From positions 1,222,616 through 1,286,615 of the forward strand of contig OZ245843.1 in the NCBI GenBank assembly GCA_965228875.1: 64,000 bases of DNA, given 5' to 3'. The notes under the pieces are model-generated. The model made no database searches. It was not told the DNA's origin and was given only the letters and a program-made list of their open reading frames with translations. A program made the position numbers and the translations under genes. The DNA comes from Thalassobaculaceae bacterium. Lineage in GTDB: Bacteria; Pseudomonadota; Alphaproteobacteria; Thalassobaculales; Thalassobaculaceae. Numbering within the stretch: the first letter of the stretch is position 1; every line of letters begins with the position of its first letter. Positions 13,805 through 61,661 of this stretch are shown here, one piece after another.

Positions 13805-14293
13805 ATGGTGACCCTCCACCTGCTTCGTCACGCCAAATCCGATTGGGATGGGGGCGAGCCGGATCACGACCGCCCGCTGGCCCCGCGCGGCGAACGGGCC
13901 GCGGCGGCGATGGCCGTCTATTGCCGCCAGCATGGAATCGCGCCCGACCTGGTGGTGTGCTCGACGGCCCGCCGCACCCTCGACACCCTGGCGCTGCTGC
14001 GTGCCGGCCTGCCGGAAACGCTCCGGGTCGAAACCACGCGCGACCTGTACGAGGTCGGTGCCACGCGAATCCTCGCGCGGTTGCGGTCGATCCCGGAGGA
14101 CGTGCGCGTGGCACTCGTGGTCGGCCACAACCCGGGCATGGAGGACACGGTGCGCCTGCTGACCGGCGGCGGCGTGGGCGCCAAGTTCCCCACCGGCGCC
14201 ATCGCCACCCTGGAGGCGGCCGGGGACTGGGCGACGTTGGCGCCCGGATGTGCGGAACTGCGTCGTTTCGTGACGCCCAAGGACCTTGTATGA
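13805..14293 (+). CDS. Histidine phosphatase family protein (SixA-like)
   Basis: LLRHAKS, DHDRPL..RG, VGHNPG. Confidence 0.88.
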   Translation: MVTLHLLRHAKSDWDGGEPDHDRPLAPRGERAAAAMAVYCRQHGIAPDLVVCSTARRTLDTLALLRAGLPETLRVETTRDLYEVGATRILARLRSIPEDVRVALVVGHNPGMEDTVRLLTGGGVGAKFPTGAIATLEAAGDWATLAPGCAELRRFVTPKDLV

Positions 14294-16277
14294 CGGCACC
14301 GATCCGCCCTCGGCCGTCTTCGAACCGACCCCGGAAAGTGCCAGCCCAGACATGCTGATCATCGGTCTGCAATGCGGCCACGACGCTGCGGTCACCGTCC
14401 TCGCCGACGGCAAGGTGCTTGTGCACCTGGAACGGGAGCGCAAGACCCGGGAACGGCACGCCGCCGCGATGTCGGCCGACCTCATAGACGATGCGTTGGC
14501 GTTTTGCGACGTGTCTCCCCAGGACATCGACTACTTCGCGCTCTGCACGACCCAGGCGATGGGCTATGGCTCGACGGCGGGCGAACGCCTGAAGTTCGAC
14601 TACGACTGGGCGACGGCGGAGCGGATCGGCGACCACCGGTTCAGCCGCACCATGTACCGCCGGGTACTGGGGATGCTCGACCTGCTGCCGCTTCGGGTGG
14701 CCAACACCGACCGGGGCGAGTCCAACTGCTTCAACGTTGAATGGCCCGACGCCGCGCCCTCGACGTGGTTCAACCCGCACGGCATGGGTGGGGTTGAGAC
14801 CGCCGGCGAGGAGGCCGTCCGGCCGCTGTTCGATCGCGACGACTACGAAGGTGCCTATGCCCTGCCGATGCGGGTCACCTATGACGGGCGGACCTACCCG
14901 GCGGTTGGAACGCTGCATCAGCTCGCCCATGCGGCGGCCGCGTTCTACCAGTCGCCGTTCGACGCCGCGCCCGTCCTCGCCCATGACAACGGATCACCGA
15001 TGGAGGATCTCGGCTACCGCGGCGGCATGATGTTCTACGGGGAGGGGACGCGGCTGCGCCCCGTCTGGCGCGCGCGGATCGCCGCGGGGCTGATCTATGC
15101 CCGTAGCGCCTGGCTGCTGACGCTTGGCGGGATGCCAGGGCCGGGCAAGCTCATGGGGCTGTCGGCGTACGGGACGCCGGAGTTCTTCGATCCCCGCTTC
15201 ATCGGCGACTCGGTGGCGCTGGGTGGACTCTACAGCCCAGCGAGACTGCGCAACTACCGCAGCGAGAAGCGCTGGGACGCGGTGCGCGGGTGGTTCGCCG
15301 CGATGGAGAATGCGGCCCATCGCGCCGGCTACGGGCCGCTGGAGGAAGCGTTCTCGCCGCTCGGCAAACAGGTCGCCGCGACCGCGCAGAAGACGTTCGA
15401 GGAACTGGTCCTCTACACCATGCAGCGGTTCGAGACGCTGCTGCGAAAGGCCGGCCGGCCCGTCGCGGACGCCTGTTTCAGCGGCGGCTGCGCCCTGAAC
15501 TGTCCGACCAACTCCCGGATCGTCGAGACGACACGCTTCACACGGCTGTTCGTGCCGCCGTCCTGCGACGATGGCGGCCTGTCCACCGGCGCCGCTCTCT
15601 ATCTCTACCACCATATTCTCGACGGCCCGCGGCGCGAGACGTCGTCGCTCGACCGCAACGTCGCCTATCTGGGGCGGGAGGCGTCGGAGGGCGAGGTATC
15701 GGCCGCGCTGTCGGCCCGGTCCGGGGCACTCGAGGTGGAGGAGGGCGTGGACACCGCGTCACGGGTTGCCGAGGATCTGGCCGACGACCGGGTGGTCGCG
15801 GTGTTCGACGGGCGGGCCGAGAGCGGTCCGCGCGCGCTTGGCCACCGCTCGCTGCTGGCCGATCCGCGCCGCCGCGAGACCTGGGACCGGGTCAACCGGA
15901 TCAAGCGCCGGGAGTGGTGGCGTCCGTTCGCGCCGGCCTGCCTGGCGGAGCGGCTGCGCGATCATTTCGACGGCGGGCCCGAGCATTCGCCGCACATGCT
16001 GTTCAACTACCGCGTCCGCTCCGACGCCCTGGGGGCGGTAACCCATGTGGACGGCACGGCCCGGACCCAGACCGTGGGCCGGGACGGCGGCACGTTCAGG
16101 GCGATCATCGAGGCGTTCGAGGACCGCACCGGTCTCCCGGTCGTCCTCAATACCTCGTTCAACGGGCCGGGCGAGCCCATCGTCGACACCGCCGACGACG
16201 CGCTGCGCTTCATCGAAACCAGCGAAGCCGACGCCCTGTATATCGGAGGGCGCCGGATCAGCCGGCGAGGCGGATAG
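14286..16277 (+). CDS. O-carbamoyltransferase, NodU/CmcH/TobZ family, copy 1
   Basis: GHDAA, ELER-like motif, HQLAHA, GKLMGLSAYG, SGGCALN, GPRALGHRSLLADPR, KRREWWRPFAP, HVDGTAR.QTV, LNTSFN; start may be Met at 14352. Confidence 0.9.
   Translation: MYDGTDPPSAVFEPTPESASPDMLIIGLQCGHDAAVTVLADGKVLVHLERERKTRERHAAAMSADLIDDALAFCDVSPQDIDYFALCTTQAMGYGSTAGERLKFDYDWATAERIGDHRFSRTMYRRVLGMLDLLPLRVANTDRGESNCFNVEWPDAAPSTWFNPHGMGGVETAGEEAVRPLFDRDDYEGAYALPMRVTYDGRTYPAVGTLHQLAHAAAAFYQSPFDAAPVLAHDNGSPMEDLGYRGGMMFYGEGTRLRPVWRARIAAGLIYARSAWLLTLGGMPGPGKLMGLSAYGTPEFFDPRFIGDSVALGGLYSPARLRNYRSEKRWDAVRGWFAAMENAAHRAGYGPLEEAFSPLGKQVAATAQKTFEELVLYTMQRFETLLRKAGRPVADACFSGGCALNCPTNSRIVETTRFTRLFVPPSCDDGGLSTGAALYLYHHILDGPRRETSSLDRNVAYLGREASEGEVSAALSARSGALEVEEGVDTASRVAEDLADDRVVAVFDGRAESGPRALGHRSLLADPRRRETWDRVNRIKRREWWRPFAPACLAERLRDHFDGGPEHSPHMLFNYRVRSDALGAVTHVDGTARTQTVGRDGGTFRAIIEAFEDRTGLPVVLNTSFNGPGEPIVDTADDALRFIETSEADALYIGGRRISRRGG
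15627..16240 (+). repeat. 614-bp direct repeat, copy A (3' part of carbamoyltransferase 1)
   Basis: Matches 17607-18220 at an offset of 1980 with 9 mismatches counted by eye. Confidence 0.95.
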
Positions 16278-16334: not shown

Positions 16335-18260
16335 ATGCTGATTGTCGGGCTGCAATGCGGGCACGATGCCGCCGTCACCGTGCTCGTCGACGGCGAGATC
16401 CGTGTGCATCTGGAACTCGAACGCAAGATCCGCACCCGTCACGCCGGGCCGATGATGGCAGAACTGATCGATGACGCGCTGTCCATGTGCGGCGTCGCCG
16501 CCGCCGAGATCGATCTGTTCGCCCTGTGTACGACCCAGGGATCGAGCTACGGCTCGACCGACGGCGCCCGGCTCAGGTTCGACTACGACTGGCGGACCGC
16601 CGAGCGGCTGGGCGAGCACCGCTTCAGCGAGGCGCTCTACAAGCGCGCGTGCGTTCTGGAGGCGCAGCCGAAACGCGGACCCGGAAACACCGACAGCGGG
16701 CCGACCAGGCTGCTCAACACCGAGTGGCCGCCGAACCTGCCGGAACTCTGGGCGGATCCGGCGGGGATGGGGGCGATCGACACCGCCGATCCGGATGATC
16801 TCTCAGCGCTGTTCGACGCTGGCGACCCGACCCGCAGCTATGTGCTGCCGATGCGGGTGACCTTCGACGGGCAGGCGTTTGCCGCGGTCGGCGTGCTGCA
16901 TCAGCTCGCCCATGCCGCCGCCGCGTTCTATCAGTCGCCGTTCGAGGCGGCGCCGATCATCGCCCACGACAACGGTGCGCCGTTCGAACATCTGGGCTAT
17001 CGGGGCGGGATGATCTTCTATGGCGAGGGCAACCGGCTGATCCCGCTGTGGCGTGCGCGGATCGCGGCCGGCCTGCTCTATTCGCGCACCGCGTGGCGTC
17101 TGGGGCTCGGCCGCATGCCGGGGCCCGGCAAGCTCATGGGGCTGTCGGCCTACGGGCCCGCCGAGTTCTACGACGGACGGTTCATCGGCGACGCGGTCGC
17201 CCTGTCGGATGTCTACGATCCGCCCGGGCTCGCGGGCTACGAGGATCGGATGTGGGATGGTCTGCGCGGGTGGTTCGCGGCGGTGGATACGGCGGCGGCG
17301 GCGGCCGGTTTCGGCGACGCGGACGACCCCTTTTCCCCACTCGGTCACCGCATGGCGGCGACGGCGCAGAAGACGTTCGAGGAACTGGTCCTCTACACGG
17401 TGGAGCGTACGCGGCTGCTGCTCGACAGGACGGGGCGGTCGACCGGCCCCCTGTGCCTGAGCGGCGGGTGCGCCCTGAACTGCCCGACCAATTCGCGGAT
17501 CGTCGAGGAGACGGTGTTCGATAAGGTCTTCGTTCCCCCGTCCTGCGACGATGGCGGCCTGTCCACCGGCGCCGCCCTGTTGGTGCAGCACCACGTCCTC
17601 GGACAGCCGCGGCGCGAGACGTCGTCGCTCGACCGCAACGTCGCCTATCTGGGGCGGGAGGCGTCGGAGGGTGAGGTATCGGCCGCGCTGTCGGCCCGGT
17701 CCGGGGCACTCGAGGTGGAGGAGGGCGTGGACACCGCGTCACGGGTTGCCGAGGATCTGGCCGACGACCGGGTGGTCGCGGTGTTCGACGGGCGGGCCGA
17801 GAGCGGTCCGCGCGCGCTTGGCCACCGCTCGCTGCTGGCCGATCCGCGCCGCCGCGAGACCTGGGACCGGGTCAACCGGATCAAGCGCCGGGAGTGGTGG
17901 CGTCCGTTCGCGCCGGCCTGCCTGGCGGAGCGGCTGCGCGATCATTTCGACGGCGGGCCCGAGCATTCGCCGCACATGCTGTTCAACTACCGCGTCCGTT
18001 CCGACTCCCTGGGAGCGGTGACCCATGTGGACGGCACGGCCCGGACCCAGACCGTGGGCCGGGACGGCGGCACGTTCAGGGCGATCATCGAGGCGTTCGA
18101 GGACCGCACCGGCCTCCCGGTCGTCCTCAACACCTCGTTCAACGGACCGGGCGAGCCCATTGTCGACACCGCCGACGACGCGCTGCGCTTCATCGAAACC
18201 AGCGAAGCCGACGCCCTGTACATTAAAAACAGAAGAATATCCCGGCGACGCGACCGATAA
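16335..18260 (+). CDS. O-carbamoyltransferase, NodU/CmcH/TobZ family, copy 2
   Basis: Same motif set as copy 1; C-terminal third nearly identical. Confidence 0.9.
   Translation: MLIVGLQCGHDAAVTVLVDGEIRVHLELERKIRTRHAGPMMAELIDDALSMCGVAAAEIDLFALCTTQGSSYGSTDGARLRFDYDWRTAERLGEHRFSEALYKRACVLEAQPKRGPGNTDSGPTRLLNTEWPPNLPELWADPAGMGAIDTADPDDLSALFDAGDPTRSYVLPMRVTFDGQAFAAVGVLHQLAHAAAAFYQSPFEAAPIIAHDNGAPFEHLGYRGGMIFYGEGNRLIPLWRARIAAGLLYSRTAWRLGLGRMPGPGKLMGLSAYGPAEFYDGRFIGDAVALSDVYDPPGLAGYEDRMWDGLRGWFAAVDTAAAAAGFGDADDPFSPLGHRMAATAQKTFEELVLYTVERTRLLLDRTGRSTGPLCLSGGCALNCPTNSRIVEETVFDKVFVPPSCDDGGLSTGAALLVQHHVLGQPRRETSSLDRNVAYLGREASEGEVSAALSARSGALEVEEGVDTASRVAEDLADDRVVAVFDGRAESGPRALGHRSLLADPRRRETWDRVNRIKRREWWRPFAPACLAERLRDHFDGGPEHSPHMLFNYRVRSDSLGAVTHVDGTARTQTVGRDGGTFRAIIEAFEDRTGLPVVLNTSFNGPGEPIVDTADDALRFIETSEADALYIKNRRISRRRDR
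17607..18220 (+). repeat. 614-bp direct repeat, copy B (3' part of carbamoyltransferase 2)
   Basis: Matches 15627-16240. Confidence 0.95.
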
Positions 18261-18397: not shown

Positions 18398-19108
18398 ATG
18401 AGCACGCCTTATACGCTTGCGGTCATCCGGAATCATCTTGTCACGGCCGAGGCCGGTCGGATCTCATCGTTTCTCGACGACAGCCAGGACTGGCTGGATC
18501 GTCGCCGCCTCCACCTGAGCATCCATCAGGACTTCGACCGCTTCATCCCCCTGTTCGAACGACTCGGCGAGATCGGCGCGTTCGCCGGGTTTCGAGTGGC
18601 GCCTACCGGGTTCTGGTTCGAGGTGCGCCGGGACGATCTGCCTGTCGCAACCTACGCGGCGTACCTGATACCGCTGATCGGCACCCTGAAGGAGCATGTC
18701 GAGGACAGAGGGTGGTACGACGGTGCTCAGGACCGGTGGCGGTTCCACGGCGAGGCGAACCGGCTGGCCGAGTCGATCTCCGGCACGGTGATGTTCAACG
18801 GCGGCATCGCCGTCCATCGCGACTATCGAAGCAAGGGCCGACACCGCGCGCTTCGGGTCTCCCTCGACCTGCTGCCGAGGATGTCGATGATCGGACGCGT
18901 CCTCGGCTACGGCCTGTTCGGTGCCGATGGCGGCGTCTTCATGGCCAAACAGGGGAACATGCCGATCAAGGCGGGAACCGGGCCGCAGGCCGTGGCCGAA
19001 TCGGTCGAGTGGATCACCCCGTCCGGCGTTCTCGGTCCGCGTTCGCTGGGCTGGACGTCGTCGCAGGTGGCTCTGGCAAGAGCTTTGGCTGCGCGACCCG
19101 AGCGCTGA
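18398..19108 (+). CDS. Hypothetical protein, GNAT-fold-like; paralogue of 58608-59321
   Basis: RBS AAGGAG before ATG 18398; ISGTVMFNGGIAVHRDYRSKG resembles GNAT motif A; aligns by eye to the 58608-59321 protein. Confidence 0.65.
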   Translation: MSTPYTLAVIRNHLVTAEAGRISSFLDDSQDWLDRRRLHLSIHQDFDRFIPLFERLGEIGAFAGFRVAPTGFWFEVRRDDLPVATYAAYLIPLIGTLKEHVEDRGWYDGAQDRWRFHGEANRLAESISGTVMFNGGIAVHRDYRSKGRHRALRVSLDLLPRMSMIGRVLGYGLFGADGGVFMAKQGNMPIKAGTGPQAVAESVEWITPSGVLGPRSLGWTSSQVALARALAARPER

Positions 19109-19907
19109 TCGACAGGACCCGGCCGTCGTCTCTGGGCAGGTGCAGGGCCGTATAGGACATGACCCGGCGCCTGCCGTCGGCGCCCGCCACCACCGCGTGG
19201 CACCGGTGATAGTGCGGGATCCGCTCGAGCTGGCAGGCGGAGATCCGGCCCTCGGCCCATGCGCCGTAGCTGGAATCCGTCTGCCCGGCCATCGGGATGT
19301 GAACCCTCGGCTTCTCGTTGAACAGCAGTCCGGCCACCTCGCGCCCCTGCCATTCGACCCACTGGCGGCCATTGGGGCCGAGATAGGTGAGGGTGGCGCG
19401 GTTGGCCACGTCGTCGGGCACATCGAGGCGTCCCGCGCGCCACAGGTCCAGGGCGCTCCGCTGCAGGTCCGACCCCCATTTCAGGACGTCGTCGGGACGA
19501 TGCATCCGGACACTCGTGTAGGTGCGCGGGCCGTCCGACGCAGGCAGGACATCCGCGCGGGCGCTGCTGATCGAGCCTGCCACGATATCGGTCGCGGCCG
19601 GGGCGCCGAGCAGCAAGCCGAGACCGCCCAGCATCTGTCTGCGAGAGACCACCCGCGGGACGACCTGGTCTTCGATCTCGGGATCCCTGAAACGCACGCC
19701 CGACCCGCCGCCGTTGCCGAACAGGAACTCGATGCCTTCGTGCTCCAGCGCCAGCTGCAGGTTCCGGGTCGTGGACACCAACGGGTCGCGAACGCCGCCC
19801 TCGAACTCGATGACGGTACGCTTGCTGACACCGGCACGGTCGGCGAGCTGCTGCTGCGTGATGCCGAGGAGTGCGCGCGCTCCTCGGCACTGGCGGGGAT
19901 TGATCAT
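19014..19907 (-). CDS. XRE-family HTH protein with internal Tat-like segment and C-terminal PAS-like domain
   Basis: MINPRQCRGARALLGITQQQLADRAGVSKRTVIEFE is a typical alphaproteobacterial XRE; C-terminus PHYHRCHA...SYTALHLP..DG resembles PAS_5. Confidence 0.75.
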   Translation of the reverse strand: MINPRQCRGARALLGITQQQLADRAGVSKRTVIEFEGGVRDPLVSTTRNLQLALEHEGIEFLFGNGGGSGVRFRDPEIEDQVVPRVVSRRQMLGGLGLLLGAPAATDIVAGSISSARADVLPASDGPRTYTSVRMHRPDDVLKWGSDLQRSALDLWRAGRLDVPDDVANRATLTYLGPNGRQWVEWQGREVAGLLFNEKPRVHIPMAGQTDSSYGAWAEGRISACQLERIPHYHRCHAVVAGADGRRRVMSYTALHLPRDDGRVLSISARVAQPKLLPEPPATTSSPANADRERRTG

Positions 19908-20292: not shown

Positions 20293-21315
20293 GTGATGGC
20301 AAGGACAACACACACGAGCTGCCCAATCACTGGACAACCGGGCGCGATCTCCGAAGGGCTGGACTTGGACGCAGAACGGGTCAGCAGCCCAGCCACCTTA
20401 GGCCCCGTGACCTACACGCGTTCTCTCCTGGCTGTCTTAGGGAACCGTGGAGCGGATGAGAAGAGAGCTTTCGGACGATGGATTGTAGATCGAAAGCAGT
20501 TTGGAGGGCTTCCGAAGATTGTTAATAGGGATTACTGGAACAAGTACAGGGCGTACCCTGAGTGGTCTCTGACAGAAAGAGCAGACCGGTTGTTCCATTG
20601 GGTTCTTAGGGAGAGGCAGGGCATCGAACCACTCGCTCCCTTTTATCTAACGCCAGATCATCCCGACAGGATCGCGGCTTGCGCCGTTTCCGACAGCGTG
20701 AGTGAGAACCAACTGTTGCTGGTATTGTCGATCCTCGCCGAGCGCGGGCATATCGAGTTTGTAACCCTGACAAACAAACCTGGAAGCGGCGCGCAACCCT
20801 GGTTCAGACTGACCCCAGCAGGATGGGTAGCGTCCGAACACCAGCCAACCGGCAGGATGAGTGATCGCACGTTTGTAGCGATGTGGTTCAGTTCAGAGAC
20901 CGAGGACCTGAAAGAGGCCATATCGGACGGTGTTCGTCATGCTGGCTATGTACCGATCATCATCGACAGAGAGGAGTACACCGGACTGATCGTGGATCAG
21001 ATTATGAAAGAGATCAAATCAGCTCGGTTCGTCATCGCTGACTACACATGTGGATACCAGCAAGGCTCCGAAAGTGAGGAACACTATCAAGCGCGGGGCG
21101 GGGTATACTGGGAGGCAGGTTACGCTCAGGGATTGGGGCTCACTGTGATCTCATCGGTCAGGCGAGACCTGTTTGGTAAGCCGGGTGCATTGCACTTCGA
21201 CCAAGCCCAGTTCAATCACCTCTCTTGGCAACCGGACAAGCTACATGACTTCGAGGAACAATTGAGAGACCGCATTGTAGCTCTGGTCGGATGGGGACCC
21301 CATCGACTGAACTGA
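20293..21315 (+). CDS. Protein with C-terminal nucleoside 2-deoxyribosyltransferase/TIR-like domain; putative defence effector
   Basis: FVAMWFS, IMKEIKSARFVIADYT, RGGVYWEAGYAQGLG, LHFD; preceded by wHTH-like FRLTPAGW; visibly lower GC and atypical codons. Confidence 0.7.
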   Translation: MMARTTHTSCPITGQPGAISEGLDLDAERVSSPATLGPVTYTRSLLAVLGNRGADEKRAFGRWIVDRKQFGGLPKIVNRDYWNKYRAYPEWSLTERADRLFHWVLRERQGIEPLAPFYLTPDHPDRIAACAVSDSVSENQLLLVLSILAERGHIEFVTLTNKPGSGAQPWFRLTPAGWVASEHQPTGRMSDRTFVAMWFSSETEDLKEAISDGVRHAGYVPIIIDREEYTGLIVDQIMKEIKSARFVIADYTCGYQQGSESEEHYQARGGVYWEAGYAQGLGLTVISSVRRDLFGKPGALHFDQAQFNHLSWQPDKLHDFEEQLRDRIVALVGWGPHRLN

Positions 21316-21508: not shown

Positions 21509-21583
21509 TGGCTCCCGGGGAGGGATTCGAACCCCCGACCAAGCGGTTAACAGCCGCTCGCTCTACCACTGAGCTACCCGGGA
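21509..21583 (-). tRNA. tRNA-Asn(GTT)
   Basis: TCCCGGGTAGCTCAGTGGTAGAGCGAGCGGCTGTTAACCGCTTGGTCGGGGGTTCGAATCCCTCCCCGGGAGCCA. Confidence 0.97.
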
Positions 21584-21651: not shown

Positions 21652-21725
21652 TGGAGGCCCCGACCGGAATCGAACCGATGTACAAGGATTTGCAGTCCTC
21701 TGCATAGCCACTCTGCCACGGGGCC
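21652..21725 (-). tRNA. tRNA-Cys(GCA)
   Basis: GGCCCCGTGGCAGAGTGGCTATGCAGAGGACTGCAAATCCTTGTACATCGGTTCGATTCCGGTCGGGGCCTCCA. Confidence 0.97.
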
Positions 21726-56622: not shown

Positions 56623-57249
56623 CTAACGCCACACGTCCCCGGGCACAGGGTCGCCCTCCAACATCGCCGGACCCGCAGGTCGGTGGCTGGCCCTGCGCCG
56701 CAGCATCGTCCTGAAGCCATCGCGCACCTGCTCCAGATCCAGCACCAGGTCGTGGCGAGCTGACACCGCCTCGCAGCGGTCCAGCAACTCGTCGAAAGCG
56801 GCGGCGCAGCGCGCCGGCAGGCGGACATGGGGGCTGGCCAGGATCAGCCAGCGCGGTTCCTTCTCGGCGCGGAACGGGTCGGTCCGCGGCGCGACGCGCT
56901 GGGTCACGTAGAACTCCATGCACCCCTGAAAGTAACCGCGCACCTCGAACAGGATCGCCCCCTCGCCACCCGGCAGGCTCGGTATCAGCGGATCGTCGCG
57001 CGCCAAGTCCTCCATCTCTGCCTCAAGGACGGCGAGATCGATCAGCATCTCCTCGAGAAAGAGCTCGAGCACGTCGGCCTCGGTGGTGTCGGAGCCGAAG
57101 CCGTGAACGAAGGCGGCGAGGTGAGGGGGGATGACTGTGTAGTAGTCCTCGCGGACCGACGACTTGTGGCTGCGGCACCCCGCGCCCGCGTGCCAGGTCA
57201 GGATGCGGCCCGGTTTCTTCAGCGCGCGTTCGAGTGCTACCCTGGTCAT
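56623..57249 (-). CDS. Hypothetical protein
   Basis: 208-aa ORF with protein-like composition and high-GC3 codons; no recognised motif. Confidence 0.55.
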   Translation of the reverse strand: MTRVALERALKKPGRILTWHAGAGCRSHKSSVREDYYTVIPPHLAAFVHGFGSDTTEADVLELFLEEMLIDLAVLEAEMEDLARDDPLIPSLPGGEGAILFEVRGYFQGCMEFYVTQRVAPRTDPFRAEKEPRWLILASPHVRLPARCAAAFDELLDRCEAVSARHDLVLDLEQVRDGFRTMLRRRASHRPAGPAMLEGDPVPGDVWR

Positions 57250-57287
57250 CGACGAATCGTATCGCGAAAATGGAGCGGCGTCCCGCC

Positions 57288-57554
57288 ATGATCGATCCGA
57301 ACCTGCTGGGCGACCTCGCCAAGGATCACCAGAAGAACGTCATGACCCGCGAGGAGGCGCGTGCCTTCCTGAAGGACCTCATGGCGGTCTGCCGTCAGCA
57401 CCGGGTGTTTCTGCGCACGGCCGACCAGACCCTCCGGTTCTCCAAGGTGTTCGCCGACAGCGATCAGCGCACCGTGTTCAGGGCTATCGTCGACAAGGAG
57501 GGGCGCTGCGCCGGGGCCCAGATCGACTACAAGAGCCGGCCAAGCGCGGGTTGA
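57288..57554 (+). CDS. Small hypothetical protein
   Basis: 88-aa ORF MIDPNLLGDLAKDHQK... with strong host-like codon usage. Confidence 0.6.
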   Translation: MIDPNLLGDLAKDHQKNVMTREEARAFLKDLMAVCRQHRVFLRTADQTLRFSKVFADSDQRTVFRAIVDKEGRCAGAQIDYKSRPSAG

Positions 57555-57957: not shown

Positions 57958-58695
57958 ATGGTCGGTAAGCGGGATCGGATTTCGGGGCTGTTGGAAACCC
58001 TGAAGCACGACGTTGCGGAGTATGCGCGCCGCGCGGAGTTGCGTCCCAAGACCCTGGCCCGGTCGGCGGGCGTTCAGGACAAGCTCGTCTACGGCATGAC
58101 CGACCCGGCGGACTGGCACGTCAGCTTCCGGACCCTCTCGAAGATCGAGGCGGCGTTCGAGACTGACGGGCGGTGGCCCGGCGCCGGATCGGACCTGTGG
58201 CGGGAGAGCGGATCCTCGAACGGTTTCATCTCGAGCCACCCGTCTGCCGACTGGGACGTACCGAGGTTCGCCGACGTGATCGCGGTCTGGCGTCGGGCCC
58301 AGGCTCAAGGTCTCGGCCCCGCCGCCTTCGACGATCTTCCCGGTGTGACGCTGATCAACGCCCGGGCAAGCGACCCGCGCCGCTATCGTATCCTGCGCCA
58401 CGCACCGGCGAGCGTCGCGGCAGGCGGGAGCGACGATACCGGCGCCGAACTCGGCGGCCATCGGACCGATTTCTACGCCGACGCGCTGATGACCGAGTAC
58501 CTGTGGGTCAAGGCCACGACGACGCCCTCCCTGTCGGAGGTGGTCTGGGCGGCCCGAGGCACCGAGGCGGGTGCGTATTTCTGGCGGCTGATCCTGCCGT
58601 TCGGTGACTACCTGGTGTCGGCCATAGACATTCTGCGCTCCGGACTGACCGTCGGTGGCGACAGCGCCGACAGCGCCCGCGCGCCCTCGGCGTAG
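57958..58695 (+). CDS. Cro/XRE-like HTH plus PAS-like domain protein
   Basis: TLARSAGVQDKLVY...SFRTLSKIEAAF (HTH-like); VIAVWR, D.TG.EL, FYADAL..EY..V...TP, YFWRLILP (PAS_5-like); RBS GAGG. Confidence 0.65.
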   Translation: MVGKRDRISGLLETLKHDVAEYARRAELRPKTLARSAGVQDKLVYGMTDPADWHVSFRTLSKIEAAFETDGRWPGAGSDLWRESGSSNGFISSHPSADWDVPRFADVIAVWRRAQAQGLGPAAFDDLPGVTLINARASDPRRYRILRHAPASVAAGGSDDTGAELGGHRTDFYADALMTEYLWVKATTTPSLSEVVWAARGTEAGAYFWRLILPFGDYLVSAIDILRSGLTVGGDSADSARAPSA

Positions 58696-59321
58696 ACCAG
58701 GACCTCTCGATCGTGAACCGGGCCGCGCGCGACGGGGCCGTCGAACAGGAGTTCGGCGCCGTCATAGCCGAACTTCGGGATGTGAATGCCCTTGGCGTGG
58801 GTCTCCTCGGTCAGCAGCCCGACCTGCCAGTCCTCCTGCCAGGTTCGGAGCGTCATCAGCCGGATCATCCACATCAGCCGGGTGGCGAGGCCGAGACCCT
58901 GGGCGGCGGCGTCGATGATCATTCCACCCTGAAGGCTGATCCGCCCGGAAATGCGGTGCGCGGTGAGGGAGGTGACCTCGATCGGTTCGATGTCGTCGAG
59001 CGACGGGGCGTCATGGGCCCAGATGGCGCGGTCGTCCAGCAGATCGATCAGGCGCCCCTCGTACAGACGAGCAGCGATGACGGCGAAGGTGGTGCCGCAA
59101 GCGGACACCCGGATCCACGCGAACTCCCGCGGGCTCATCAGCGCGCCGGCGGCCGGATCGAGGGCAGGGTGGACGTAGCCCGGAAAGCTGGCGCGCTCGG
59201 CGGCGAACCCGGCCGGGTCGTTACCGGCGGCCACCTCCAGTCCGAGCGCCTCCACCGCACGCTTGTGAGCCTGCAGGCGGGCATTCAGACTGCGGCGCTG
59301 ATCGGGTGTGATCGGGATCAT
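58608..59321 (-). CDS. Hypothetical protein, GNAT-fold-like; paralogue of 18398-19108
   Basis: ISGRISLQGGMIIDAAAQGLGLATRL contains the GNAT motif A QxxGxA; FGY near the C-terminus. Confidence 0.65.
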   Translation of the reverse strand: MIPITPDQRRSLNARLQAHKRAVEALGLEVAAGNDPAGFAAERASFPGYVHPALDPAAGALMSPREFAWIRVSACGTTFAVIAARLYEGRLIDLLDDRAIWAHDAPSLDDIEPIEVTSLTAHRISGRISLQGGMIIDAAAQGLGLATRLMWMIRLMTLRTWQEDWQVGLLTEETHAKGIHIPKFGYDGAELLFDGPVARGPVHDREVLVYAEGARALSALSPPTVSPERRMSMADTR

Positions 59322-59512: not shown

Positions 59513-60187
59513 TCAGGCCAGGCCGGTCGTCGCCTCCCAGCACCGCCGCAGGGTATCGCTCGTATCGTTGAACCGTTCGCCGGTCGGTACGCACTCCCGG
59601 ATCCGGTCGACCCGGAAGTGACGGAAATCCTCGCGCAGATCGCACCAGGCGGCCAGAACGAGCGAATTGACATAATAGGTCAGCGCGACCGGCTTGACCC
59701 TGCGTTTCGTGCGGCTGGCCTTCTTGTCGTCATAGACGATTTCCAAGGCCATGGACTCGCGGATGAACTGCCGCAGCGTGCCGATGTCGACGATCGTTTC
59801 CGGCACCTCGCTCCAGTCGGACACATGGAGATGGGAGGGCGGGTCCGCATGCGCAGGCAGAACGTCGGCGATCTTCGCGGCGGCCCGTTCGGCGGAGCGG
59901 ATCAGATCGCGGTCGCGCGTCCTTCCAAGCATCGCCAGTCCGACCACGATCGCTTCGAGTTCATCTCCCGAGAACATCAGCGGCGGCAGATCGTAGCCCG
60001 GACGCATGACATAGCCGACGCCGGCTTCGCCGTGGATCGGAAGACGCATGGCCATGAGGGCGGCGATGTCGCGATAGACGGTCCGTCGAGTGACCTCCAG
60101 GGTCTCGGCGATCTGCTGCGCCGTCACGGGCCGCAGTGCGGCGCGCAGGATCTGGATGATCTCGAACAGTCTGGTTGACCTGGACAT
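59513..60187 (-). CDS. YafY/WYL-domain transcriptional regulator
   Basis: MSRSTRLFEIIQILR, RTVYRDI, GEAGVGY, LPPLMF, AWCDLREDFRHFRVDRI. Confidence 0.92.
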   Translation of the reverse strand: MSRSTRLFEIIQILRAALRPVTAQQIAETLEVTRRTVYRDIAALMAMRLPIHGEAGVGYVMRPGYDLPPLMFSGDELEAIVVGLAMLGRTRDRDLIRSAERAAAKIADVLPAHADPPSHLHVSDWSEVPETIVDIGTLRQFIRESMALEIVYDDKKASRTKRRVKPVALTYYVNSLVLAAWCDLREDFRHFRVDRIRECVPTGERFNDTSDTLRRCWEATTGLA

Positions 60188-60208
60188 AGGACATCGTACC
60201 ACGCGGGC

Positions 60209-60230
60209 TGCTGACGATCCGGTGTCAGCA
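60209..60230. promoter_or_regulatory. Inverted repeat, candidate WYL regulator operator
   Basis: TGCTGAC-N8-GTCAGCA between the divergent WYL gene and small ORF. Confidence 0.65.
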
Positions 60231-60311
60231 ACCCCGTGATAGCACCGGTCCCGTTCGCAACGCCGTAGCACCGGCAGTTCCGCCGGGCCGGCCACCCAAA
60301 GAATGGAGGAC

Positions 60312-60500
60312 ATGACCGTGATCAAATACATCTACCCCGATGGCACTCACTGTTACTGCGCACTGCACACCACGCAGGCCGTGTATCGTTCGGAAGACGG
60401 CAAACTGATCGCCCGGGCGATCAGAGCCGGCAGCGCCGATCCGTACGAGTTCGAGATCGTCGGCTTCGAACTGCTGGAGGCAGGGATACGCTATTCCTGA
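60312..60500 (+). CDS. Small hypothetical protein (62 aa), likely target of the WYL regulator
   Basis: RBS GGAGGA before ATG 60312; MTVIKYIYPDGTHCYCALH... Confidence 0.7.
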   Translation: MTVIKYIYPDGTHCYCALHTTQAVYRSEDGKLIARAIRAGSADPYEFEIVGFELLEAGIRYS

Positions 60501-60782: not shown

Positions 60783-61661
60783 ATGACCGATGCCGCCACC
60801 GAAGAAGACGACGTCCCGCCGGCGCTGGCCGCGCTGCCCGACGGTCCCGCCATCGCCCGACTGATCGCGGTGATGGCCAAGCTGCGCGACCCCGACGGCG
60901 GTTGTCCGTGGGATGTGGAACAGAGTTTCGAGAGCATCGCGCCGTACACCATCGAGGAAGCCTACGAGGTCGCCGAGGCGGTCACGCTCGGCGACCGGGC
61001 GGCGCTGAAGGACGAGCTCGGCGACCTGCTGCTGCAGGTGGTCTATCACGCCCGCATGGCCGAGGAGGAAGGCACCTTCGCCTTCGAGGACGTGGCCGGG
61101 GCCATCGTCGACAAGATGATCCGCCGCCACCCCCACGTCTTCGCCGGCGCCAGCGTCGAGGATGCCGCGGCGCAGACCGCAGCCTGGGAGGAACAGAAGG
61201 CGGCCGAGCGCGCCGCCAGGGCCGAGGCGGAGGGACGTGCCGCGTCGGCTCTCGACGGCGTGTCGTCCGCCCTGCCCGCGCTCATGCGCGCCGTGAAACT
61301 GCAGAAACGGGCCGTTCGGGCCGGATTCGACTGGCCACGGACGGCGGACGTCTTTGACAAGGTCGACGAGGAACTGCATGAACTGCGGGCCGAACTCGCC
61401 GATCCCGGGCAACACGACGCGGACCGTGTCGAGGACGAGATGGGCGATCTGCTGTTCACCGTCGTCAACCTCGCCCGCCATCTGGAGGTCGATCCGGAAA
61501 CCGCGCTGCGGCGCTGCAACGCCAAGTTCGAGCGGCGGTTCCGGTTCATGGAGCGGGAACTGGCGGCGGAGGGTACGGCCGTGGGGGCCGCCGATCTCGA
61601 GGAGATGGAGCGTCACTGGCAGGCGGCCAAGAGGGCCGAGACCCCGAAAGTCCAGTCCTGA
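60783..61661 (+). CDS. mazG: Nucleoside triphosphate pyrophosphohydrolase MazG
   Basis: LRDPDGGCPWD, EEAYEV, DELGDLLLQVVYH, RRHPHVF, GFDW, EMGDLLF. Confidence 0.95.
   Translation: MTDAATEEDDVPPALAALPDGPAIARLIAVMAKLRDPDGGCPWDVEQSFESIAPYTIEEAYEVAEAVTLGDRAALKDELGDLLLQVVYHARMAEEEGTFAFEDVAGAIVDKMIRRHPHVFAGASVEDAAAQTAAWEEQKAAERAARAEAEGRAASALDGVSSALPALMRAVKLQKRAVRAGFDWPRTADVFDKVDEELHELRAELADPGQHDADRVEDEMGDLLFTVVNLARHLEVDPETALRRCNAKFERRFRFMERELAAEGTAVGAADLEEMERHWQAAKRAETPKVQS

Follow-up and report, generated by a model that had tools for sequence, protein, structure and literature searches.

Two convergent gene pairs in the window

The window analyzed here is a stretch of 64,000 nucleotides (nt) from contig OZ245843.1 (positions 1,222,616 to 1,286,615 of the forward strand; GenBank assembly GCA_965228875.1) of a Thalassobaculaceae bacterium, and it holds two copies, A and B, of a gene pair in which a gene for an enzyme with a predicted GNAT acyltransferase fold runs tail to tail into a gene for a protein with a PAS_5-like domain. 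We refer to the enzymes as A and B and to their partners as regA and regB; the coordinates of all four genes, of their domains and of the overlaps between them are collected in Table 1. A sequence-only reading of the window had described copy A as a plus-strand open reading frame (ORF) of 236 amino acids (aa) that overlaps a minus-strand ORF by 95 nt at the 3' end, and copy B as a recurrence of this arrangement at 57958-59321, with a 237-aa protein and an overlap of 88 nt, and both descriptions agree with the coordinates and with the coding signal.

Table 1. Genes, domains and overlaps of the two copies (positions in the window; HTH, helix-turn-helix)
Feature	Position	Strand	Size	Description or basis
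Enzyme A	18398-19108	+	236 aa	Divergent family with predicted GNAT fold; most divergent of the seven paralogues in the genome
regA	19014-19907	-	297 aa	XRE-type HTH, variable linker, PAS_5-like domain, 26-aa non-conserved tail
regA HTH_3 (XRE) motif	19776-19880	-	residues 10-44	Pfam HTH_3
regA PAS_5-like sensor domain	19068-19535	-	residues 125-280	AlphaFold2 model, structure search, hhalign
Copy A 3' overlap of convergent genes	19014-19108	both	95 nt	
regB	57958-58695	+	245 aa	N-terminal part of about 90 aa without family match; PAS_5-like C-terminal domain
regB PAS_5-like domain	58234-58692	+	about residues 93-245	Seed profile, hhalign
Enzyme B	58608-59321	-	237 aa	Same family, with predicted GNAT fold, as enzyme A
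Copy B 3' overlap of convergent genes	58608-58695		88 nt	

Because the window has a G+C content of 66.8% and contains many spurious ORFs, the codon-position composition of the four ORFs was checked. All four showed a coding-type composition, with G+C at the third codon position (GC3) between 0.81 and 0.86 (0.81 in enzyme A, 0.85 in regB) and GC1 above GC2, and the surrounding shadow ORFs differed from them; in the frame plot, the coding strand switches at about 19020-19080. The start codons of the enzymes are backed by homologues of equal length (236 aa in P0006 for enzyme A, 237-238 aa in P0010-11 for enzyme B), and that of regA by 17 homologues that begin with 'MINP.QCR'. In the overlap of copy A, the conserved C-terminal helix of the enzyme is read from the plus strand and the non-conserved tail of regA from the minus strand. 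This tail of 26-27 aa, which is the source of the overlap, occurs in one of the 17 regA homologues (P0161), the other 16 ending straight after the C-terminal domain. No terminator-like site was found between the convergent genes by a simple scan, which is weak in GC-rich DNA.

Homology and predicted fold of the enzymes

The sequence-only reading had aligned the two enzymes by eye, and the relationship that it proposed is visible at the profile level and not in direct comparison: BLASTP of A against B was not significant (best E 0.16), and hhalign of the two small families paired the same blocks as the alignment by eye, weakly (123 columns, E 9e-4, probability 23%). Neither enzyme matched a Pfam family at E ≤ 1 or any NCBIfam model, and close relatives numbered only 4-5 for each in a word-indexed search of 5.8 billion proteins. 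A merged profile of A and B retrieved 344 representative clusters at E ≤ 1e-3, and 71 at E ≤ 1e-10, from 1.84 billion proteins, and several intermediates, such as P0034 (4e-8 and 7e-12), matched both enzymes by BLASTP. Homology in profile searches had been set as a test beforehand, and for it a profile was built from 126 relatives that excluded A, B and their close kin, although a profile that included A and B had first been used to gather these relatives. With this intermediate profile, enzyme A reached 56 bits and enzyme B 158 bits, and two other paralogues encoded in the genome had scores of 176 and 198 bits. Because the profile scores both enzymes, A and B are, on profile evidence, homologous, with A the most divergent. 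Other routes gave little: none of the profiles A1, A2 and A5 had a significant match in sequence searches of the PDB, profile A2 run over the genome contigs gave 65 pattern matches with none confirmed, tblastn of P0002 against a plasmid collection had no match, and the 30 clusters nearest to enzyme B in a protein atlas were all 'hypothetical', none with a Pfam family.

The AlphaFold2 model of enzyme A, computed from an alignment of 106 sequences, reached a predicted local distance difference test score (pLDDT) of 92.7 and a predicted template modelling score (pTM) of 0.90. Among the PDB matches listed for it by Foldseek, almost all were GNAT acyltransferases, with Naa60 at 1e-4, LasI at rank 15 and FeeM at rank 20, and VIA-align on this list gave Z scores of 11.8-10.4. 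An unbiased VIA search over 48,161 chains returned a top 50 composed entirely of GNAT-fold structures (Z 11.8-9.7). The best fold matches are protein N-terminal acetyltransferases, the neighbours include AAC, SpeG and the agmatine and serotonin acetyltransferases, and the GNAT toxin structure 7byy stands at Z 10.2. The GNAT fold of enzyme A, proposed in the sequence-only reading, is thus confidently predicted by the structural model; enzyme B was assigned to the same fold family through the family profile alone.

A Pfam scan of 70 relatives produced weak GNAT matches in 20, five passing the Acetyltransf_1 cut-off; of 14 family members compared with NCBIfam, none matched a model. Because A and B have no curated model and their relatives give mostly weak matches or none, the enzymes constitute a new, divergent family inside the GNAT superfamily, one without a Pfam or NCBIfam model. 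The loop after strand beta4 reads QGLGLA in enzyme B, RGSGLS in C, RGIGLS in D and RSKGRH in A, where it is variant at the last position and carries an insert of four residues; in the model of A, it lies between E128-139 and H154-174, and R144 is nearly invariant over the 106 sequences, G147 being another conserved loop residue of A. In position (beta4-alpha3) and in pattern, R/Q-x-x-G-x-(G/A/S)-like in A to D, this loop fits the pyrophosphate-binding loop for coenzyme A (CoA) of GNAT motif A, R/Q-x-x-G-x-G/A.

With respect to known signal synthases, LasI (1ro5) aligned to enzyme A at Z 9.9 over 170 residues (rank 37, less than 2 Z units below the top match) and FeeM at Z 10.3-10.4 over 169-172 residues, these two giving the longest alignments and not the best scores. 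The protein atlas offered weak leads to FeeM and Acetyltransf_5 clusters, with scores of 0.82-0.83 that lie below the tool's own evidence level. None of the four window proteins matched Autoind_synth at E ≤ 1, and a LuxI search of this genome had no match, a result that is uninformative since the control was also silent in 14 of 14 genomes.

The partner proteins

The sequence-only reading had described the partner as an XRE-type HTH protein with a PAS-like domain, and the PAS-like part holds for both partners at the profile level, the HTH for regA only. In regA, Pfam HTH_3 scored 26.4 bits over residues 10-44 (cut-off 23, E 7e-6) and the HTH region is invariant across 18 sequences; an antitoxin HTH model reached 31 bits, with a cut-off of 71.65. 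In the 17 regA homologues, whose sources are named Thalassobaculum and Thalassobaculaceae, a variable linker connects the common HTH to a conserved C-terminal domain. In regB, no HTH was matched by Pfam, the regA-family profile gave a probability of 0.1%, a PDB sequence search stayed at chance level (best E 0.91), and regA and regB were not significantly similar by pairwise BLASTP. LuxR-type domains (autoinducer-binding domain and C-terminal GerE HTH) had no Pfam match in the roughly 34 partner ORFs scanned.

Residues 125-280 of regA were modelled by AlphaFold2 with a pLDDT of 91.3, and an unbiased structure search with this domain returned only PAS, LOV and Cache domains among its top 50 (Z up to 11.0); the corresponding Foldseek E-values were weak, at 1e-2 or worse. 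Its structural neighbours include the signal-receptor PAS domains of VqmA with DPO (7dwm, Z 9.8) and of RpfR with BDSF (6dgj, Z 8.3). Pfam PAS_5 (PF07310, gathering threshold 22 bits) gave no direct match at E ≤ 1 for regA or regB, and none for the partners of C, D, E, F and G. Seeded with regB and the C and D partners, a profile did reach Pfam-positive PAS_5 paralogues in the same genome, and hhalign against 42 canonical PAS_5 paralogues gave probabilities of 96.9% for the regA type (E 1.8e-10), 97.2% for the regB/C/D type (E 3.3e-11) and 92.9% for the LysR type (E 3.6e-7), with 0.7% for the negative control. The partners are PAS-fold proteins remotely homologous to Pfam PAS_5.

The linker of regA (about 19560-19650, minus strand) and of P0161-P0177 carries a conserved 'SRR', mostly followed by a Gly/Leu-rich hydrophobic stretch that resembles a twin-arginine motif. 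A role of this 'SRRxxLGxxGLL' as a Tat-like signal for the membrane or for export was considered but rejected, since 2 of 18 sequences lack the hydrophobic stretch and an 85-aa cytoplasmic HTH part precedes it.

Pairing of enzyme and PAS_5 genes within and across genomes

With the enzyme profile, seven paralogues (A to G) were found in the genome to which the window belongs (G000; 4.96 Mb in one contig), with mutual identities of 16-38%, and a PAS_5-like gene adjoins all seven. The A, B, C and D pairs are convergent with overlaps of 95, 88, 102 and 213 nt, respectively, in the convergent E and G pairs the genes are 21 and 52 nt apart, and in the F pair the partner lies upstream on the same strand. 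Besides these seven divergent enzyme-linked copies, the genome has 37 matches to PAS_5 at the Pfam level, 33 of them above the cut-off, and none of the 37 is adjacent to an enzyme. From about 44 such genes in 4.96 Mb, the chance of finding a PAS_5-type gene within 1.5 kb of a given gene is estimated at about 3%. The profile of the regA-type sensor matched, in this genome, solely its four source ORFs, the partners of A, E, F and G. Three PAS_5 genes stand in tandem at about 515953-517839 of the genome.

The enzyme occurs in 39 of 401 sampled genomes of the class and in 30 of 307 genera, a count of genomes that includes G000 and the unpublished G240, no sequence of which was used; a sample of the phylum gave 15 genomes with a match, every one of them from the same class, Alphaproteobacteria. 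We analyzed the neighbourhoods of 60 loci from other genomes, in three sets, counting as a partner any gene that was PAS_5-like by hidden Markov model (HMM) within 1.5 kb. Set 1 was scanned with a profile drawn from this genome only, and sets 2 and 3 with a 'paired' profile that combined this genome with set 1; set 2 was itself the source of the LysR-type profile, which is backed by Pfam HTH_1, by hhalign and, for two of its five members, by the paired profile. Several of the 60 loci share a genus and are therefore not independent.

A PAS_5-like partner was found in 45 of the 60 loci, in convergent orientation in 36, in tandem in seven and divergent in two, and 26 of the 36 convergent pairs (72%) overlap by at least 20 nt. 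This orientation is kept over at least 30 genera-level lineages. With seven of seven enzymes paired here and 45 of 60 elsewhere, the association of enzyme and partner is far beyond chance, and the enrichment beside PAS_5-type genes, mostly convergent and overlapping at the 3' ends, that the sequence-only reading had called for is borne out. Its label of 'HTH-PAS regulator' fits some partners; most of those elsewhere are stand-alone PAS_5 proteins without a DNA-binding domain. A search of the 401 genomes with the whole regA-family profile was swamped by generic HTH matches, with a match to the sensor domain only in G131.

Among the loci without a partner by HMM, one (L032/L092) has a convergent PAS_5-like ORF by eye, with a second such pair on the same contig, and in another the neighbour of the enzyme is asd. 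At a further HMM-negative locus, the gene convergent with the enzyme (L088:3605-5965, plus strand) encodes, judged by eye, a bacteriophytochrome-like histidine kinase of 786 aa. In two genomes (L078:5658-7667 and L024:1318-3345), two enzyme paralogues stand in tandem, and one convergent PAS_5-like gene comes after them. Across 27 contexts, the surrounding 5 kb contain no conserved third gene. A major facilitator superfamily (MFS) transporter directly follows the enzyme on the same strand at L094:2166-3434 (plus strand, 112 bits) and L098:213-1415 (minus strand, 129 bits); the L094 and L098 genomes belong to another family, and the gene order at L094 is LysR-PAS_5, enzyme, MFS.

Partner outputs, joint inheritance and the 3' overlap

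What the partners have in common is the PAS_5 domain; the output part varies. Elsewhere, the majority stand alone, with lengths of about 180-215 aa; the Pfam PAS_5 cut-off was passed by 4 of 20 partners (L007 25.6, L008 34.8, L012 31.7 and L015 30.6 bits), and the partners of three loci matched the NCBIfam MopJ model at 47-50 bits, with a cut-off of 200. A fusion of LysR HTH_1 to PAS_5 occurs in four loci, directly upstream of the enzyme and on the same strand. In three loci (C, D and L092b), the operon of the sensor contains a conserved, separate small HTH gene (BLASTP 8e-11 and 5e-6), and the middle ORFs of C and D have no detectable likeness to PAS_5. The partners of E, F and G and their relatives carry an N-terminal domain of 150-300 aa without family assignment.

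Distances between enzymes correlate with distances between their sensors (Mantel r 0.79 over 28 pairs, none of 5000 permutations as high; r 0.82 for the seven paralogues of this genome), and partner type is clustered on a quick tree of the enzymes, requiring 24 changes compared with 36.4 in shuffles (none of 200 as low). Because distances correlate and partner type clusters on the enzyme tree, this shows that the pair has been inherited and duplicated as a unit. The 3' overlap is itself enriched, at 72% of convergent pairs against a genome background of at most 16%, and in copy A it consists of the poorly conserved tail of regA.

Genomic neighbourhood of the two copies

Upstream of enzyme A, by 138 nt, lie two tandem paralogous carbamoyltransferase genes (14286-16277 and 16335-18260, plus strand; Carbam_trans_N/C at about 190 bits), which are not conserved as neighbours in other contexts and could form a local biosynthetic unit with enzyme A. 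On the other side, beside regA, a 340-aa ORF (20293-21315, plus strand) has a CAP12/Pycsar-type TIR domain (27 bits) and a GC3 of 0.61, far below that of its neighbours, and stands near the genes for tRNA-Asn (21509-21583) and tRNA-Cys (21652-21725); it looks like a horizontally acquired gene, possibly related to defence. No PADLOC defence model matched the enzymes or the sensors.

Immediately upstream of enzyme B, an ORF at 59513-60331 (minus strand) encodes a regulator with HTH_11 and WYL domains (PADLOC WYL, 204 bits), and MazG lies at 60783-61661. Just upstream of regB are two small ORFs without family match, at 56623-57249 (minus strand) and 57234-57554 (plus strand), with coding-type GC3 values of 0.87 and 0.85, respectively; the latter has a weak Bbp19-like phage-protein match (17.6 bits) below the cut-off. 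The stretch is present in metagenome runs labelled marine, seawater or coral, and no RNA run was among those listed.

Proposed function and alternative explanations

We regard the pair as a real, apparently undescribed two-gene module, whose mechanism we infer. The analysis establishes the two folds, membership in the family, the conserved pairing with its orientation, the co-divergence and the variety of output domains. The reading that we prefer, with a probability of roughly two in five, is that it consists of a predicted acyl-CoA-dependent small-molecule synthase and its cognate PAS_5 receptor, with a transcriptional output where an HTH is present. Each locus would then be one copy of a self-contained two-gene module, in which a cytoplasmic, acyl-CoA-dependent enzyme of the GNAT family would make a small acylated metabolite, and this product, rather than the substrate, would be bound by the PAS_5-type domain of the neighbour. 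Copy A has its PAS_5 domain on one polypeptide with an XRE HTH, and ligand binding would alter transcription there; in other lineages, the sensor domain is joined to a LysR HTH, has a small HTH gene next to it or occurs alone, and the stand-alone sensors would presumably signal by protein contacts, as MopJ does. The tail-to-tail layout with overlapping 3' ends would keep the promoters separate, and the overlap may allow mutual interference by polymerase collision or antisense RNA. As for this genome, its seven pairs, all deeply diverged, would represent separate channels with separate ligands.

Several observations weigh against this synthase-receptor reading. The predicted structure of enzyme A stands measurably no nearer to LuxI or FeeM than to acetyltransferases that act on proteins or amines, with Z scores on a plateau of 9.7-11.8, and the Pfam models Autoind_synth, FeeM and Acetyltransf_5 matched none of 70 relatives at E ≤ 0.01. 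Most partners have no recognizable output domain, a neighbouring exporter is present in only two loci, and 15 of the 60 loci had no partner by HMM, including two whole long-branch clades of the enzyme. Operator-like inverted repeats were absent from the four promoter regions in a simple scan, which is weak in GC-rich DNA. In addition, the co-divergence of the two genes is expected from duplication as a unit and is no proof of a common ligand or of co-adaptation. Finally, overlapping 3' ends may be rather frequent in this GC-rich genome: the background for the overlap was obtained with a crude gene caller, by which 112 of 685 convergent pairs (16%) overlap by at least 20 nt, an upper bound that includes many shadow ORFs.

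The leading alternative, which we consider unlikely, is a physical interaction of the two gene products, in which the PAS_5 protein would be a regulatory subunit, an antitoxin-like inhibitor or a protein substrate of the GNAT enzyme; the module would then work by way of a protein complex or of protein acetylation instead of a free small molecule. Such a complex would suit the predominance of stand-alone PAS_5 partners of about 180-215 aa without an output domain, three of which resemble MopJ at 47-50 bits (far under the cut-off of 200), and MopJ, the only characterized PAS_5 protein, works through protein partners (PMC4432633). It would also suit the fold comparison, in which protein N-terminal acetyltransferases rank highest and a GNAT toxin (7byy) reaches Z 10.2, and small, co-diverging pairs with many paralogues in variable contexts are what toxin-antitoxin-like modules would show as well. 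However, 36 of the 45 pairs are convergent, which precludes the co-translation from one mRNA that is usual for toxin-antitoxin and enzyme-subunit pairs; no enzyme-PAS_5 fusion occurs among the 150 best family representatives, all of at most 337 aa; there were no toxin-antitoxin matches in PADLOC or NCBIfam; and HTH fusions of two classes better suit a ligand-responsive transcription factor.

A second alternative, in our view rather unlikely, is an ordinary metabolic or detoxifying acetyltransferase whose PAS_5 neighbour senses the substrate (a xenobiotic, an antibiotic or an amine) and induces the enzyme, without cell-cell signalling. Many GNATs modify amines, antibiotics and amino acids, and AAC, SpeG and the agmatine and serotonin acetyltransferases are fold neighbours of enzyme A; likewise, the four loci with LysR-HTH-PAS_5 upstream on the same strand and the two with MFS after the enzyme are organized like resistance or efflux operons. 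Local regulators are typically divergent from their target, whereas only 2 of the 45 partners are so oriented, and most partners have no DNA-binding domain; seven deeply diverged pairs, with no catabolic companions in 27 contexts, would also be unusual for such a system. That the genes have no functional link, and are adjacent through shared mobility or by chance amid many PAS_5 paralogues (37 Pfam-level matches in this genome, and 15 of 60 loci without a detected partner), is highly improbable and strongly disfavoured by the counts, given the expectation of about 3% against 7/7 and 45/60, the conserved orientation and the co-divergence of the genes.

A more far-reaching form of the synthase-receptor reading, which we hold to be unlikely, is a new class of chemical communication, in which GNAT synthases would make distinct acylated signals for cognate PAS_5 receptors in up to seven orthogonal channels of one marine alphaproteobacterium. 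If this were so, the 37 unpaired PAS_5 proteins of this genome would act like LuxR 'solos', and the signals would be the first ligand class for PAS_5/MopJ and would be tied to the control of cell cycle and motility in Alphaproteobacteria. If the product is a diffusible signal, the module would be a marine bacterial counterpart of the LuxI/LuxR design, assembled from other components and with several channels in parallel; if the two proteins bind each other instead, it would represent a new mode of GNAT regulation. PAS_5 proteins are abundant in Alphaproteobacteria, 37 plus seven in this genome, and the enzyme partner gives a direct experimental handle on their ligands. In either case, at least 344 sequence clusters whose present annotation goes no further than 'hypothetical protein' gain, as a family, a predicted fold, a partner and a testable role.

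Comparison with known systems

A literature search found no link between PAS_5 and GNAT, the PAS_5 domain being named in the MopJ study and in an unrelated survey of LOV-domain receptors, and nothing relevant on GNAT enzymes in combination with a PAS domain, convergent transcription and a signal synthase; both results are provisional, as subscription journals lie mostly outside the search. MopJ of Caulobacter is a single-domain PAS_5 protein of 165 residues that acts on the DivJ/CtrA circuitry, and the accessible part of that study reports neither a ligand nor a linked enzyme (PMC4432633). The partners share with MopJ the Pfam PAS_5 domain family, and 4 of 20 stand-alone partners elsewhere pass the cut-off; however, they are not orthologues of MopJ (47-50 bits against a cut-off of 200), and neither regA nor regB reaches the Pfam PAS_5 threshold.

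GNAT toxin-antitoxin modules of the TacT/AtaT type combine a GNAT with a small partner that can carry an HTH, and many paralogous pairs may be found per genome. A GNAT toxin structure is similar to enzyme A at Z 10.2, but the genes described here are convergent instead of forming an operon, the partner is a PAS_5 protein, no toxin was matched in PADLOC or NCBIfam, and the enzyme has about 240 aa compared with about 170 aa for GNAT toxins. The N-acyl amino acid synthases FeeM and NasY are larger GNAT-fold enzymes that make acylated small molecules, the function proposed here, and FeeM gives one of the longest alignments (169-172 residues); in contrast, none of 70 family members matched FeeM or Acetyltransf_5, and the atlas scores stay below the evidence level.

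In VqmA-DPO and RpfR-BDSF, as is proposed for some of the present pairs, a PAS ligand-binding receptor is fused to a DNA-binding or other output. The resemblance is a match at the fold level only, with 3-6% identity and within a long list of PAS domains, and the synthases of DPO and BDSF are not known to be GNATs.

A close parallel in design is LuxI/LuxR, of which several pairs, together with receptor 'solos', are sometimes present in one genome. Members of the EsaI/EsaR-SprI/SprR group have a gene for a GNAT-fold synthase beside that of a ligand-binding regulator, the functions proposed here for enzyme and partner, and like the present module they are self-contained, with convergent genes whose 3' ends overlap; in sprI/sprR, a synthase/receptor pair of this kind with known relatives, the overlap is 23 bp (PMC6930789). 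The components nevertheless differ. Autoind_synth matched none of 72 proteins, LasI (Z 9.9) is no nearer to enzyme A than generic GNATs are, and the present family keeps a CoA-type loop. The partners have no LuxR-type domain; their receptor domain is PAS_5, and the HTH, when present, is N-terminal and of the XRE or LysR type. The novel element, apparently undescribed, is the locking of a new GNAT family to a PAS_5 partner.

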